Shown: positions 38,008 to 53,742 of the stretch, piece by piece | Layout of the letters: each line of letters opens with the position of its first letter | How positions within the stretch are numbered: position 1 is the first letter of the stretch | DNA from: Terriglobia bacterium | GTDB taxonomy: Bacteria > Acidobacteriota > Terriglobia > Versatilivoradales > Versatilivoraceae | Assembly: GCA_963665655.1 (NCBI GenBank) | Contig: OY762429.1 | Span: 624,503-688,502, forward strand | Direction of reading: 5' to 3' | Length of the DNA: 64,000 nt | Made by a program: the position numbers and the translations under genes | The notes under the pieces: model-generated | The model's database searches: none | What the model was told of the DNA's origin: nothing | The model's input: the letters and a program-made list of their open reading frames with translations, nothing else

Positions 38008-38298
38008 TCACCTTCGGACGTCGTACCGTTTCCAATCGGGCAGGTGGGCCGTCATCAGCGCCTTGAAGAGCTTGCCGTGGTTGGGAACGCGCAGGTGCAG
38101 CAACTCATGAGCAATGACGAAATTCTGGAAGTCCGTGTCCTGATCGGCCAGGTCGGCAGCCAGGGTGACGATTCCCGACGTGGAACAGGAACCCCACTTT
38201 CGCGTCATGCGCTGAACGCGAACCAGCCGCGGGCGCACATTCAGGCGTTGCGCCCAGTGCTCTACGCGACCGCGAATGGCTTTGCGCTGATCGTTCAT
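38008..38298 (-). CDS. Short YgjP-like M48/DUF45 zinc metallohydrolase (96 aa, C-terminal HELLH half only). It is translationally coupled (ATGA) to the hsdR stop.
   Basis: KWGSCS...[13 protein letters not shown] motif. Confidence 0.65.
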
Positions 38299-41267
38299 GC
38301 GTCGGCATCGGCGCTTGCGCCCAGGAGAATCGCGAGTATGTCCTCTACGACACGGCTCCGTTTGTCTTTGTCCAGTCTTAGAAGCGGTTGATAGAGGGCC
38401 GCCCGCAACCGCCTCTGCTCGTCCCCGTTGACCGTTGCGTTGGGGAAGCGCCCCAGGAGTGCATCGGCCTGCTTCCCAAGATCCTCGGCACCGACCTCAG
38501 CCATCCTCAACCGTTTGTCGTCCTTGAGCGCCCAATAGACGCCGAACCCACGCGGGGAAAGGCCACTATTTCTGGCCGCTACAACGGCCGCTTCCTTCTC
38601 CCGAGCGATTACCGCCAGCCGGTCCATGGCCTCAAGACCGGTGGCCTTGCGCTCCTCAAGGTCTTTCAGGATGCGCTCGGCGCGCTCCTTCAAGGGGAGC
38701 AGCACAGGCTCCAGGTCCGGCTCGCTGCTGATTTCGTGCCGGAGGCCGCGCACGAGGTTGAATACCTTTGCCTCGTCCGAACCCGACTCGCCTCGAAGGG
38801 CTTCGAGAGTGCTCACGTCGAACGTCACCGTTTTACTTGAGCGGCCGAGGCCTCCCTGGGCCGCGCTCTCCTGCACCATCAGGCGCGTCTTGTTCCCCAG
38901 GTCGATCGCGTAGTTGACCCGCGTGGCATAGGCATTGCGGACGGCTGCATAGAGATGAGCCAGGCGTTTGAAGGTCGAGATATGGTCCCGCAGCTCGGGT
39001 GACGGCGACAGGATCTCCCAAAGCGCCTCGATCTCCTTGTAGGCTTCGAAAAACGCCGTGCGCGATTCCAATTCCAGAAAGCGCCCATAGACGATGTGCT
39101 CCAGGCGCTCGTCTTGCCCGCCGGCCCCCTCGTCTTCGAGATATTCCGCCTTGGCCTTGGCGATCTTGAGATGGAAGTCTCTCATCAGCACATCCAGATC
39201 CTCGATCACCCCGCTTACGTCGGAGGAATCGAACTGCAGCGCCTTCTTCAACTCCCGGAGCACCCCCACGAAGTCGACGACCAGGCCAATGCGTTTGCGT
39301 CCACCGGCGGCGTCCACGTAGGGCCGGTTCACGCGGGCAATCGCCTGCAAAAGCACGTGGTCGCGCATCGGCTTGTCCAGGTACATGCAGTACAGCAGCG
39401 GCGCATCGTAGCCGGTCAGCAGCTTGTCGGTCACGATGAGGATCTTCGGATCCTCGTCCGCCTTCTTGAACATGAGCCGCATGTCCGCCTCCCGTTCGGG
39501 CGAGAGCTGAAGCTCTGCGACCAGCGGCCGGTCGACGATGTCGGCAGGGTTGTCGGTATAGACCGGCGCGGTCCATTCGGGCGGCAGCAGCTTGTCGAGG
39601 GCGCGTTTGTACTTGGCGCAGGCTTCGCGGTTCACCCCAACCAGGAACGCCTTGTAGCCGAGCGGAAAAACGTTCTCCCTGAAATGTTCGGCGACGAAAG
39701 CAGCGACTTTCTCGATCCGGTCGTCGGCGGTGAGGAAAGTCCTGAGACCCACGGCTTTGTCGAGGACGCGGTTCAGCTCATCGATGTCGGTGACCCCTTC
39801 CATCTCGGCCAGGGCGAAGAACTCCTTGTCCAGACGATCGACCGGAACGGTCATGCGGCCAGGCGCCATGGTATGGCGGATCGGCAAGGTGGTTTCGTCC
39901 TCGATCGATTCGGCAATGGTGTACTTGTCGAGATATCCCTGTTCGTCATCGGCGCCAAAAATCTTGAAGGTCCCCTCTCCATGCTCCGTTCGTGCAATGG
40001 GGGTGCCGGTGAAGCCGATGATGGTTGCATTGGGTACGGCCGCCATCAGGTAGGTGCCCAGGTCCTTGGCAACCGATCGGTGCGCCTCGTCGATGAAAAC
40101 GTAGATGTTGCCCCGCACATTGGCGTCTTTCTCGATGCCCTCGAACTTGTGGATCATCGAGAGGATCAAACCCCGCTTGTCGGTTTGGAGCATTTCTCGG
40201 AGATCGGCCCTGGAGTCGGCGCGCCAGACAGGGATGTCCTGCTGCTGCATCTCCCCGAGAAGCCGTTCCACCCAGCCTGCGAGCTGGCCCTCCAGATCGG
40301 TTCGGTCCACCACCACAACCACCGTCGGCGTGTGGAACTTGGCCTTGGCTTCCAGGATCAATCGTGCGGCCGTCAGCAGAGTGAAGGTCTTGCCGGATCC
40401 CTGGGTGTGCCAGACCAGACCGCGGCGCCTTGCCGGCTCGGAGCAGCGTTCCACAATGCGCCCCACCGCCCGGCGCTGGTGTTGGCGAAGCACGGACTTG
40501 CGCGTCTCGCCGTCCTCGACGTAGAAGAGGATCCAGTCGCGTAGCGTTCGAAGAAAGTCGGTCGGCTCGAAGAAGGACTGGACGGCGAACCGATAGCTTT
40601 CCTCGGGCTGCTCCTTCCAGCGCGCCATGAAGCGGCGTGAGACGTTCCAGGTGACGCCATACCAGTAGTCGAGCAGATGGGTAACGTTGAAGAGCTGGGC
40701 CGCACCCATCAGCTCGGGCGTCTCCTTCTCATAGCGCCGCAACTGTGTGAGGCCCTTCTCGATGGCATCCGCGTCCGTGGGGTTCTTGTGTTCGACGATG
40801 GCCGCCGGCACGCCGTTGACCACGAACATCACGTCCGCACGGTTGCCCTTGCGCGCCGGTGGCTTGAGCTTCCATTCCCAGGTGACGTGCAACAGGTTGG
40901 ACGCCGGCCTCTCAAAATCGACGATTTGGACAGGCCGGTGACGCTGCTCGGCCTCGTCGTACCACTGCCGCTCCCCGCGCAGCCAGGCAAGCATCTCGCG
41001 GTTCCCCTCGATGGTCGGCGGGAGTGCTTCGAGTCGTTCCGCGACGGCGCGGACGGCGCCGTCTGTCAACCAGGGATTGAACCGGTGCAGGGCAACTTCG
41101 AGTTCGCCTTGAAACAGCAGCCCTGCTTCACCGCCTCGCTTCTGCCGAGCATCCTGCGGCGAGATCGGCGTCCAGCCAATTTCCTCGGCGTGACGTACCA
41201 TCGGGAACTGCACGGAGCCGGCTTCAGTGATGTGGAGGGTGGTCACCAATGACTCTCCGCTTAACAA
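38295..41267 (-). CDS. hsdR: Type I restriction enzyme, R (helicase-nuclease) subunit.
   Basis: 990 aa. Typical N-terminus. TQGSGKT Walker A. SF2 helicase motifs. Confidence 0.95.
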
Positions 41268-41318
41268 TTCCCCTTGTTGGCTGTATCTTTATCTAATTGG
41301 TTTCCCAAGGGGTTGGCG

Positions 41319-51874: not shown

Positions 51875-51909
51875 GTTCCTTCCTCCCTTCGCTCCCGAGT
51901 ATCCATAGT

Positions 51910-53742
51910 CTATTGCAATCGCGCCAACATCTTCGCCAACTGCCTATCCACCTCGCGCGCCTCCTCATCGAGGCGCTGCATCTCGGCAATGATCTCCGAG
52001 ATCGGGCGCCGGACCACGGCGTCAGCCTGCCCCACCCATCGGCTCGGACTCAAGTTGTAGTCGGCTTTTTCCGCCTGTTCCCGCGTGATGACGGCGACCT
52101 CGCCTTCGACCGGCTCGCCCTTGGCGAAGGCCGCTGCCAGCGGGCGAATGTCCTCCTCCGGGATATAGTTCTTGGGGCGGCCCTTGCGCACGCGCCGGCT
52201 GGCGTTGAGGAGCACGATCTTGCCCTGGCGGGCGGCCGGCTTGCGCTTGGACAGCACCACGATGATGCCGGCGGCGCTGGTGTTGTAGAAGAGGTTGTCC
52301 GGCAGCAGGATGACCCCATCGATGAGGTCGTGCTCGACGAACCACTTGCGGATGTTGCGCTCCCTGTCTTCGTGCCTGGCTCCGGAGCCGCGGGTCATCG
52401 CGCCGGTATCGAGCACCACCGCCGCCCGCCCGCGATCGTTGAGGCAGGCCAGGGTGTGCTGGAGCCAGGCCCAGTCGCCCTTGCCGGTGGTGATTCCGCC
52501 CCGGGTGCGGAATCGGTCGAAGGGATCGTTAGCGAAGAGGTCCGGGTTGAAGGGCTGGTTCCACATGGGATTGGCGACTACAATGTCGTGGGCGGCGATC
52601 TGTCCGGATGCGGTCTTGAACTTGGGGTTGATCATGGTGTCGCCGCGGGCGATTTCCACCTCCATGTCGTGGATGATGGCGTTCATGTGGGCGACGGCGT
52701 AGCTTTCGGCCTGCAGTTCCTGGCCGCAGAGCTTGAGCGGCACCCGGCTGATGGGGTCGAGTTCGCGGGCCACCAGCTGGAGCTTGACCAGCAGACCGGC
52801 CGAGCCGCAGGCGTAGTCGTGGCAGTCCTCGCCGGGCCTGGGCCGCATGAGGTGGGCCATGAGCAAGCCGACCTCGGTGGGAGTGAAGAATTCGCCCGCA
52901 CTCTGGCCGGAACCTTCGGCGAATTTGCGCAGCAGGTACTCGTAGGCCCGCCCCAGGAAGTCGGGCTGCACGTCGGCGAGGCCGAGTCGGTATCGGGAGT
53001 CGGAGAAGGTCTCCACCACGTCGGCGAGCTTGGCCGGGTTGAGGTCGCGCTCGCCGTTCCGTTCGGAGGCGAAGTCCACCAGGTCGATCACGCCCGAAAG
53101 CGAGGGATTTTGCCGCACAACCGCCCGCACCGCCCGGGTCAGATGTTCGCCGATGTCGTGGGGCCGCGTGCTTCGTCCCCGGTCGTCGAGGGGCCACTGG
53201 TATGTTTCGCGTCCATTGATGACTCCCCAGCGGGCTTCCGGAGGCAGGTAGAAGCGCAGCAGATCGTGGTCATTCTCCGCGATCTCTTGGGCAACCTCCC
53301 GGTCTCCGTATTCCTCAGCCAGGCGAATGATCTCGTCGTCGAAAACGTCCGAAAGGCGTTTGAGGAAGAGAAGCGGCAGCAGGTAGTCCTTGAACTTGGG
53401 CGCGTCCTTCTCCCCGCGGATGGAGCAGGCCGCGTCCCACAGCATCTGTTCCATGGGTTTGGTGGAGGGCGTAGCCGTCCGGCGCCTGCGGGACCGCCGA
53501 CGGGTCACCCGCGCCGCCGCTTCGGTGGGTTCCGCAGCCGATTCATCGGCGTCGACTCCGGATTCGGCAGCCAGCGCGGCGATGGCTTCCCGAGCTGCCT
53601 TCTGGGGCATGACCAAGCCACCTTCCCAGCGATTGACGGTGGCGAAGGAAACGCCAAGAAGACCGGCGAGCTGCTCTTGGGTGAGATCCAGGTTTGCTCG
53701 GATGGTGCGCAGAGTGGTCGGAATGTCGTCTGACTCAATCAT
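51910..53742 (-). CDS. hsdM: Type I R-M N6-adenine methyltransferase subunit, with an N-terminal XRE-type helix-turn-helix (HTH) fusion.
   Basis: True start MIESDD at 53742. The HTH reads [21 protein letters not shown]. This is followed by a basic linker and then the HsdM_N and N6_Mtase domains. Confidence 0.9.

Follow-up and report, generated by a model that had tools for sequence, protein, structure and literature searches.

Defence and toxin–antitoxin cargo between hsdS and hsdR in a type I restriction-modification locus of a Terriglobia bacterium

Among the defence genes known to sit inside type I restriction-modification operons are PrrC, in EcoprrI, and the Campylobacter rlo genes. In Vibrio cholerae, TgvAB is embedded in a type I operon of VPI-2 (PMC11411939), and a "guilt by embedding" survey reported that type I systems frequently hold embedded genes and predicted new defence genes from them (bioRxiv 10.1101/2024.01.29.577857). 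An island of enteropathogenic Escherichia coli (EPEC), ordered RptR-hsdM-hsdS-darTG-hsdR-M48, holds DarTG2 at a site that its authors regard as a potential recombination hotspot (PMC12255303). Here we analyse a 64,000-nucleotide (nt) stretch of contig OY762429.1 from a Terriglobia bacterium (hereafter the window), in which the hsdM and hsdS genes of a type I locus are split from hsdR by a block of other genes, the cargo. We think it likely that this locus is a complete type I unit of a horizontally spread family, with an hsdS–hsdR junction at which interchangeable defence and toxin–antitoxin modules dock.

The window locus has the same order as the EPEC island (regulator, hsdM, hsdS, toxin–antitoxin cargo, hsdR and an M48/YgjP-type peptidase), but where the island has a separate 79-aa RptR, the window has an XRE-type helix-turn-helix (HTH) domain fused to HsdM. 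The window has no separate small repressor gene in first place, of the kind that, with 6-bp palindromic repeats in the promoter, characterizes RptR control. The cargo of the EPEC island is DarTG2, whereas that of the window amounts to 9 kb and several modules, and the window has an additional aspartic protease gene between hsdM and hsdS. No DNA match to the window hsdM was found in complete E. coli genomes. PrrC, rlo and TgvAB are, like the window cargo, defence genes within a type I operon, but they comprise one or two embedded genes, whereas the window cargo is multi-module, permuted and accompanied by gene debris. The initial annotation of the window saw in it the recognised pattern of defence genes accreting inside type I operons; embedding between hsdS and hsdR has indeed already been published, and the window locus mainly confirms it.

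A variable, defence-rich slot between hsdS and hsdR

In the order of minus-strand transcription, the locus consists of HTH-hsdM, a clan AA aspartic protease gene, hsdS, cargo, hsdR and a YgjP-like peptidase gene. The members of the unit outside the cargo are:

51910-53742, minus strand: hsdM with N-terminal XRE-type HTH (Pfam N6_Mtase 2e-73, HsdM_N 6.9e-24, HTH_31 8.5e-8; PADLOC MTase_I 3.3e-151)
51503-51874, minus strand: clan AA aspartic protease gene, 123 aa (Asp_protease_2; TIGR03698 1.5e-23)
50325-51506, minus strand: hsdS, 393 aa, two target-recognition domains (Methylase_S 4.6e-13; PADLOC Specificity_I 4.5e-46)
38295-41267, minus strand: hsdR (HSDR_N 5.5e-23, SWI2_SNF2 7.6e-55, ResIII, T1R_D3; TIGR00348 2.8e-127)
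38008-38298, minus strand: YgjP-like (M48-type) metallopeptidase gene, 96 aa (Pfam YgjP-like 8.3e-26)

As the initial annotation held, the canonical type I genes hsdM, hsdS and hsdR are all present on one strand, each of them full length, and the split of about 9 kb that it described measures 9,078 nt between the hsdS stop and the hsdR start. HsdM, which is 100% identical to the 610-aa protein P0121, combines the N6-adenine methyltransferase domain and the HsdM N-terminal domain of a type I modification subunit. The PADLOC Specificity_I models align with HsdS over two stretches, and its length of 393 aa equals that of its counterpart in the sibling locus L088. HsdR has the N-terminal nuclease domain and superfamily 2 (SF2) translocase demanded of a type I enzyme, scores above the cut-off of TIGR00348 (426 bits vs 284.55) and is 96% identical over its full length to the 983-aa protein P0001. 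Because the HsdR homologues are 983 aa long, the true start of hsdR is probably the GTG at 41246, which gives a protein of the same length. The aspartic protease gene and the YgjP-like gene were not in the initial annotation. The former occupies the same position between hsdM and hsdS in roughly half of the family loci, across phyla, with 79–93% protein identity; the latter has a start that overlaps the hsdR stop, aligns with the Pfam model over its C-terminal half only (positions 113-200 of 207) and has a homologue 3' of hsdR in most loci of the hsd family. GC content is 53–59% over 41–51 kb, compared with 61–67% in the adjacent 10 kb on either side. No tRNA gene was found in the 64-kb window, which thus offers no tRNA-linked island boundary.

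Close relatives give evidence of turnover at the junction. Among species representatives, a Candidatus Versatilivorator metagenome-assembled genome (MAG; Acidobacteriota, Terriglobia) is the nearest, and six loci share the flanks of the window. These flanks contain PspA, DUF4178 and DUF350 beyond hsdM, and MR_MLE, BNR and Peptidase_M19 beyond hsdR. These six syntenic relatives have hsdM-hsdS and phd-hsdR-ygjP in place and present five cargo sets at one junction:

L003/L008, gap 6.3 kb: SIR2_2, DUF433, Fic531
L005 and L002, gap 10.2 kb: SIR2_2, MntA, HepT, Fic371, DUF3800, an 80-aa open reading frame (ORF), Fic351
L007 and L001, gap 10.7 kb: SIR2_2, TIR_2, SLOG, ThsB_TIR, Schlafen, Fic360
L017, gap 5.7 kb: TIR_2, MntA, Fic351-like, DUF3800, Fic fragments
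L088, gap 8.5 kb: essentially the set of the window, including an hsdR fragment and both phd copies

Among the syntenic relatives, the cargo set of the window is seen only in the sibling L088, and even this pair differs by a 376-nt indel (45945-46320, absent in L088) that removes most of DUF433 and by the replacement of a 665-nt stretch. Within the clade, the MntA/HepT, Fic371, Fic351 and DUF3800 plus RNA modules occur in differing orders. That the locus is internally rearranged, as had been proposed, is borne out by modules permuted relative to L002, with remnants of DUF3800 and of a second Fic gene left in place. Its cargo had also been called unusually dense, which does not hold against the relatives: at 9.1 kb vs 5.7–10.7 kb it is ordinary for its own clade and lies in the upper tail of the family. 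Nucleotide identity to the relatives is 85–96% for hsdM and hsdR and 87–93% for the housekeeping flanks, and the nearness of these values indicates that the hsd genes stay in place as the cargo is exchanged. Variation extends to the outer borders of the unit: 53767-53912 of the window stands against L003:8796-9976, a PH_gly_zipper gene precedes hsdM in some relatives, and 37970-38012 of the window stands against L001:13236-15380, where L001 has DUF488 and one more gene inserted after ygjP.

For the wider family we scanned one genome per species, which gave 555 relatives of the HTH-HsdM, and analysed the loci of the best 80 with 10-kb flanks. The HsdM proteins of these best 80 of 555 show 78–94% protein identity and come from Latescibacterota, Nitrospirales, Dehalococcoidia, Gemmatimonadota, Binatia, Alpha- and Gammaproteobacteria, Spirochaetia and others. 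Family HsdM and HsdR together are 72–94% identical at the protein level over at least ten phyla, mostly in environmental MAGs, and identity this high across so many phyla points to recent, extensive horizontal transfer of the whole hsd unit. hsdR lay within the fetched 10 kb in 65 of the 80 loci. The contiguous operon sought as the ancestral state exists in four species (L027, L045, L053 and L082), where hsdS adjoins hsdR across gaps of 39–51 nt. In the other 61 of the 65 species loci the junction is filled by 0.7–8.3 kb, the median gap over all 65 being 3.6 kb, and in nine further loci the sequence beyond hsdS exceeds 8.1 kb without an intact hsdR being detected. hsdR is broken up in L062 (18008-20013), and in L078 its last 50 codons are left beside a Fic fragment (14389-14684), so the unit decays in places.

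We clustered the ORFs found in the gaps and then annotated them with Pfam. The recurrent families were Schlafen/AlbA_2-HATPase_c_4 (21 loci), DUF3800 (12), MntA (11), AAA_21 (11), Fic (10), HepT (9), SLOG (9), TIR_2 (8), ThsB_TIR (7), AIPR (7) and NACHT/Cap4 nuclease (3); SIR2_2 likewise belongs to the pool, and 173 ORF clusters are singletons. Cargo in the window (Pfam, PADLOC) and in the other loci belongs to defence or toxin–antitoxin families. Of the 208 cargo ORFs that reach 200 aa or more, 197 run in the direction of the hsd genes and 11 run against it. The slot between hsdS and hsdR is variable, rich in defence genes and biased in orientation. With five cargo sets among six same-flank relatives and 61 of 65 family junctions filled, the insertion hotspot proposed in the initial annotation is supported, and a comparison of the relatives that looked for a conserved syntenic core between hsdS and hsdR found variable cargo instead.

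Modules and remnants of the window cargo

The methyltransferase/GHKL-nuclease pair, fic, DUF433 and hepT/mntA had been named as cargo before, and profile searches and PADLOC confirmed them. From the hsdS side to the hsdR side, the gap contains:

47768-50347, minus strand: gene for a GHKL protein, 859 aa (HATPase_c_3 3e-20; C-terminal PD-(D/E)xK nuclease predicted from a structural model)
46526-47761, minus strand: DNA methyltransferase gene, 411 aa (N6_N4_Mtase; PADLOC MTase_II 6e-35)
46114-46338, minus strand: DUF433 gene (PF04255 9.2e-15)
45972-46133, minus strand: possible DUF5615 remnant, unconfirmed (no Pfam match)
44753-45868, minus strand: fic, SoFic-like (Pfam Fic_N 1.4e-25, Fic 1.7e-18; PADLOC SoFic 9.9e-109)
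43812-44123, minus strand: mntA (NTP_transf_2 7.3e-12; PADLOC PDC-S09 for the mntA/hepT pair)
43478-43843, minus strand: hepT (HepT-like 1.7e-24; type VII toxin–antitoxin with mntA)
43107-43355, minus strand: 3' end of a second Fic gene, remnant (blastn to L002 8586-8834)
43042-43097, minus strand: remnant of a DUF3800 5' end (blastn, 87.5% to L002 6580-6635)
42247-42633, plus strand: vapC, intact, PIN toxin (PIN 6.6e-16)
42007-42243, plus strand: phd copy 2, of the intact pair (PhdYeFM 2.2e-12)
41716-41955, minus strand: diverged hsdR 5' fragment, pseudogene (80% nt identity to 41065-41247)
41555-41612, plus strand: vapC remnant of about 20 codons, ended by a hairpin repeat (sequence reading)
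41319-41552, plus strand: phd copy 1 (PhdYeFM_antitox 1.4e-12)

From a GTG at 50350, the longest ORF of the GHKL gene shares 26 nt with the end of hsdS, which leaves no intergenic space between hsdS and the cargo. The GHKL gene product is a member of a conserved family of about 852-aa proteins. In Foldseek, the full-length model (predicted local distance difference test, pLDDT, 73.5) matches the ATPase modules of MORC3, MORC2, MORC4 and TRAP1, with E values of about 1e-10 to 1e-11 for those of MORC2, MORC3 and MORC4. A model of residues 575-859 (pLDDT 89, predicted template modelling score 0.85) matches FokI, HindIII, BspD6I and AspBHI, and FokI-type cleavage domains are the nearest to this nuclease domain. 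Within an alpha-beta-beta-beta-alpha-beta segment of the family, D618 and E641 are invariant and K643 is nearly so. The MORC-like and FokI-like model matches, together with D618, E641 and K643, support the earlier "GHKL-nuclease" label, and the modelled architecture supports the assignment of the protein as paraMORC3-like, that is, as a putative GHKL and transducer ATPase with a FokI-like nuclease. The paraMORC3 proteins of restriction-modification systems combine GHKL and transducer domains with a C-terminal domain of the restriction-endonuclease fold and a linked DNA methylase (Iyer, Abhiman and Aravind 2008, PMC2292703). The window protein with its adjacent methyltransferase has the same architecture, and it is from this architecture, not from that family's own alignment, that the likeness is drawn. 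Its N-terminal region also matches the NCBIfam model for BbrUII/HgiDII-type enzymes (6.9e-18), at a score of 64.5 vs a cut-off of 550, so the window protein is not an equivalog.

The methyltransferase gene always lies 3' of the GHKL gene, in L088, L089 and L090-L094, which amount to three settings. In L089, the type I locus of an unrelated genome, the order is hsdM, hsdS, AAA_21, GHKL, methyltransferase, MntA, hsdR and YgjP, and in the L090-L094 contigs the pair stands outside any type I operon. Since it is found in three settings, the pair is, as judged from gene content and neighbourhood, an autonomous two-gene module resembling a restriction-modification system. Methyltransferase homologues in L011, L015, L016 and L057 were considered as further instances and rejected: they are 25–27% identical and form part of another cassette, which also has STAND/AAA_22 ATPases and an HhH-GPD-like protein.

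For Fic, the PADLOC SoFic match covers residues 6-365, and NCBIfam ProtAdlyltaseSoFic gives 148 bits vs a cut-off of 550. A DUF5615 gene had been listed beside DUF433; no Pfam match to it was obtained in the window, and a short remnant is the most that can be upheld. The translations of HepT and MntA contain the RNRLVH (Rx4-6H) and GS...DID (GSx10DxD) motifs expected of a type VII pair, and their NCBIfam equivalog scores, 34.9 and 37.1, fall under the cut-off of 60. Of the two phd/vapC modules described previously, one (42007-42633) is a complete, intact Phd/VapC pair, whereas the other consists of phd plus about 20 vapC codons; on the side of phd copy 1, homology to copy 2 picks up again only past the vapC stop.

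The hsdR 5' fragment (200 nt) and the second phd form a diverged duplicate of the hsdR 5' end and phd, the two copies being 80% identical and 688 nt apart. The fragment is 93% identical to its orthologue in L088 and 76–81% identical to any sampled full-length hsdR. The first 200 nt of hsdR itself are 97% identical to L001 and 82% to L088, whose hsdR is 89% identical overall. As the fragment reaches at most 81% identity to any sampled full-length hsdR, it would derive from another allele, not from a recent local duplication. Fragments of hsdR 5' ends are also present in L044, L049, L059 and L084. Comparison with relatives identifies 44427-44624 as a further piece of a DUF3800 module.

Apart from the locus, GC content falls to 0.505 at the end of the window (63001-64000), where an ORF (63398-63739, minus strand) resembles a HicB-type antitoxin, judged by sequence; it may belong to a further toxin–antitoxin module or mark the edge of another island.

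Boundary repeats, a structured RNA and the hsdR–phd spacer

The duplicated fragments and repeats reported in the initial annotation were recovered as the hsdR 5' fragment described above, a three-copy hairpin repeat and two further repeat families of two copies each. These repeats, the copies of a structured RNA and the hsdR–phd spacer are placed as follows:

46380-46465, unstranded: 85-nt hairpin repeat copy b (repeat search)
44662-44789, unstranded: 128-nt hairpin repeat copy 3, abuts the fic stop codon (repeat search)
44463-44549, plus strand: DUF3800-IX-like RNA copy b (covariance model R1, 100.9 bits; Rfam RF02968, 28.9 bits, E 1.2e-4)
44336-44421, unstranded: 85-nt hairpin repeat copy a (repeat search)
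42853-42939, plus strand: DUF3800-IX-like RNA copy a (covariance model R1, 96.5 bits)
42656-42783, unstranded: 128-nt hairpin repeat copy 2, 45-nt arms (repeat search)
41625-41752, unstranded: 128-nt hairpin repeat copy 1, right arm truncated (repeat and motif searches)
41247-41318, unstranded: divergent hsdR/phd intergenic region, 72 nt, with a conserved TTAGCTAA palindrome and a phd promoter-like site

The 128-nt hairpin repeat (94–130 nt) has arms of roughly 45 nt and a fourfold TTGTCGATCA motif, and its copies are placed after vapC and after fic. Within the 64-kb window its core motifs are confined to the locus, and none of 100 shuffles matched their count; Rfam gives generic long-hairpin matches only. 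In relatives, the 85-nt repeat lies upstream of MntA, DUF433 or DUF3800, which are first genes of cargo modules. Boundary repeats at module borders are common to the window and its relatives, and both hairpin repeats are limited to close Acidobacteriota relatives and one Entotheonella locus. The 31-nt core of the 85-nt repeat, TTATTCCAGTAATTCAACAACGTCCCCTT, also occurs once outside the locus, in intergenic sequence at 35548-35580, with an orthologous site in L001 and L002. A genome-wide repetitive extragenic palindrome or miniature inverted-repeat transposable element was rejected for the 128-nt repeat, the core motifs being locus-only in the window and related copies lying only in the loci of relatives. 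Integron attC sites were rejected for the hairpin repeats on the grounds of no integrase, wrong box order on inspection and homology that extends past the hairpins.

The RNA element is a three-way junction of 75–87 nt with a C7/G7 outer stem, two hairpins, one of them usually with a GNRA loop, invariant junction strands GAUGA..AAG and GUAG, and a 3' U-run. With covariance model R1, 54 copies were recovered from 87 sources. Every copy is antisense to hsd genes; many stand in arrays of two or three (for example L011:17969-18412, L012:10573-11021 and L014:20635-20895), and many lie just upstream of hsdR. Compensatory changes occur at 14 of 22 base pairs, a degree of covariation that none of 500 shuffles attained, and the frequent G-U pairs fit the modelled strand. 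A degenerate-pattern search returned 27 metagenome contigs, in 23 of which a DUF3800 gene is convergent with the element; most of these elements lie just upstream of hsdR, including the hsdR of another type I family (25–29% identity). In the window, two RNA copies are kept and the DUF3800 gene is reduced to debris.

The closest described RNA is the DUF3800-IX motif, a DUF3800-associated three-way junction (Rfam RF02968; Weinberg et al. 2017, PMC5737381). Rfam scans of 18 kb and of about 2 kb returned nothing, and the DUF3800-IX match appeared only when about 130 nt were searched alone, with scores of 28.9–29.4 bits, below the gathering score of 36.8. Common to both are the outer stem of a C-run and a G-run, the GA and UAG junction strands, the two hairpins and the 3' U-run. 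The window-type element differs in its arrays of two or three, in the occurrence of orphans, the window copies among them, that have no DUF3800 gene, and in its location inside type I loci, antisense to hsd. Its score is below gathering, yet it shares the architecture and the association with DUF3800, and on this footing we regard the element as a divergent relative of DUF3800-IX and not a curated member. A hammerhead ribozyme was considered for the 75-nt element, which has C(U/C)GAUGA and GUC by the outer stem, but was rejected for want of the GAAA core between stems II and III.

The hsdR–phd spacer has a second copy in the window, at 41935-42006. In an alignment of 14 such spacers the TTAGCTAA palindrome is conserved, and it overlaps the −10 region of the phd promoter-like site, which lies at 41261-41289 for copy 1 and reads TTGACA-17-TATCAT at 41949-41977 for copy 2. 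The spacing between hsdR and phd is 72–73 nt in most phd-bearing loci, in several phyla (L001, L010, L020, L037, L074 and L084 among them). This shared length and the palindrome suggest that phd and hsdR may be jointly controlled. On the other side of the cargo, homology to L003 and to L004 breaks at the identical point within hsdS, 50897/50898, from which we infer that the second target-recognition domain switches along with the cargo.

Exchange of the cargo and competing explanations

The reading that we prefer, of a complete type I unit with a docking site for interchangeable modules, would work as follows. Cargo would be replaced and shuffled by recombination, without a dedicated recombinase. 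The homology arms for incoming alleles would be the central region of hsdS on one side and the hsdR 5' end plus phd on the other, short repeated boundary elements within the cargo would permit internal permutation, and imprecise events would leave the debris seen here as an hsdR 5' fragment, a vapC stump and Fic and DUF3800 remnants. That so much of the cargo points in the hsd direction suggests transcription together with the hsd operon. The HTH domain of HsdM may govern this transcription, which would parallel RptR of the E. coli island. hsdR would stay functional downstream of the divergent phd promoter/operator region.

Several points weigh against this account. In the window, the co-oriented cargo is separated from hsdR by the intact vapC-phd pair in antisense orientation, and this speaks against a single uninterrupted operon transcript here; a simple promoter scan found no promoter for hsdR. 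Among the hsdR genes sampled, no donor allele of the hsdR fragment was found. The orientation and cluster counts derive from a cargo survey in which ORFs were called crudely, as the longest ORFs in GC-rich DNA. The exchange mechanism is read from mosaic identity patterns, and the type I system and each of the cargo modules are presumed active from their sequence.

Other explanations have to be weighed against the docking-site reading. Embedded toxins and nucleases could be functionally coupled to the type I enzyme or to its control, in the manner of PrrC and EcoprrI, and, in a variant, toxin–antitoxin modules by hsdR could control or back up restriction, for example with Phd/VapC acting on a shared hsdR-phd operator. 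Such coupling would accord with the co-orientation of 95% of cargo ORFs with hsd, with the phd–hsdR spacing shared by most phd-bearing loci and the palindrome over the phd −10 region across phyla, with HepT genes that end 1–4 nt ahead of the hsdR start in L023, L041 and L062, and with the activity of PrrC and TgvAB, which is enhanced or masked within type I loci. We hold it to be doubtful nevertheless, for the cargo is highly variable, down to the 173 singleton ORF clusters, the GHKL–methyltransferase module is found outside type I loci too, and phd is absent beside hsdR in about four-fifths of loci. If instead the locus were decaying, with a type I system that no longer functions and a gap that is a pseudogene junkyard in dispensable DNA, then the truncated vapC, the hsdR fragment, the Fic and DUF3800 remnants and the possible DUF5615 remnant of the window would be its marks, as would the fragmented or deleted hsdR of L062 and L078. 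The full length of the three hsd genes and of most cargo genes, their match to relatives about as good as that of the housekeeping flanks (85–96% nt), and the prevalence of split loci with intact genes (61 of 65 species) make decay scarcely credible to us.

Very unlikely, too, is site-specific capture of cassettes on an integron-like platform, in which the border repeats (both hairpins and the DUF3800-IX-like element) would be recombinase sites. Hairpins do lie exactly at module borders in the window, L001, L002, L017 and L088, and module permutations differ among relatives, but the annotated genes of the window locus and of the relatives' loci revealed neither an integrase nor a transposase domain. 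The two hairpin repeats are as narrowly distributed as stated above, whereas the widespread element follows DUF3800 genes and not cassette borders generally. Unlike clean attachment sites, the repeat copies share homology that continues past the hairpins into the flanks, and on inspection attC-like R''/R' boxes were not seen, the repeats being simple long hairpins.

What is new in the locus is a natural series within one hsd family, spread over at least ten phyla, in which close relatives display module-wise turnover and recombination debris. The 173 singleton clusters of gap ORFs are a source of "guilt by embedding" candidates. Newly described as well is a predicted two-gene, restriction-like module of a MORC-like ATPase with a FokI-like nuclease and a methyltransferase, and type I restriction loci emerge as a genomic home for a DUF3800-associated RNA. 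It is also conceivable, if rather improbable, that the DUF3800-IX-like antisense RNAs, together with a Phd/VapC operator in the 72-nt hsdR–phd spacer, gate hsdR transcription, or that the structured repeats guide module shuffling; if true, either would make the hsdS–hsdR junction a regulated cassette platform and not a passive hotspot.

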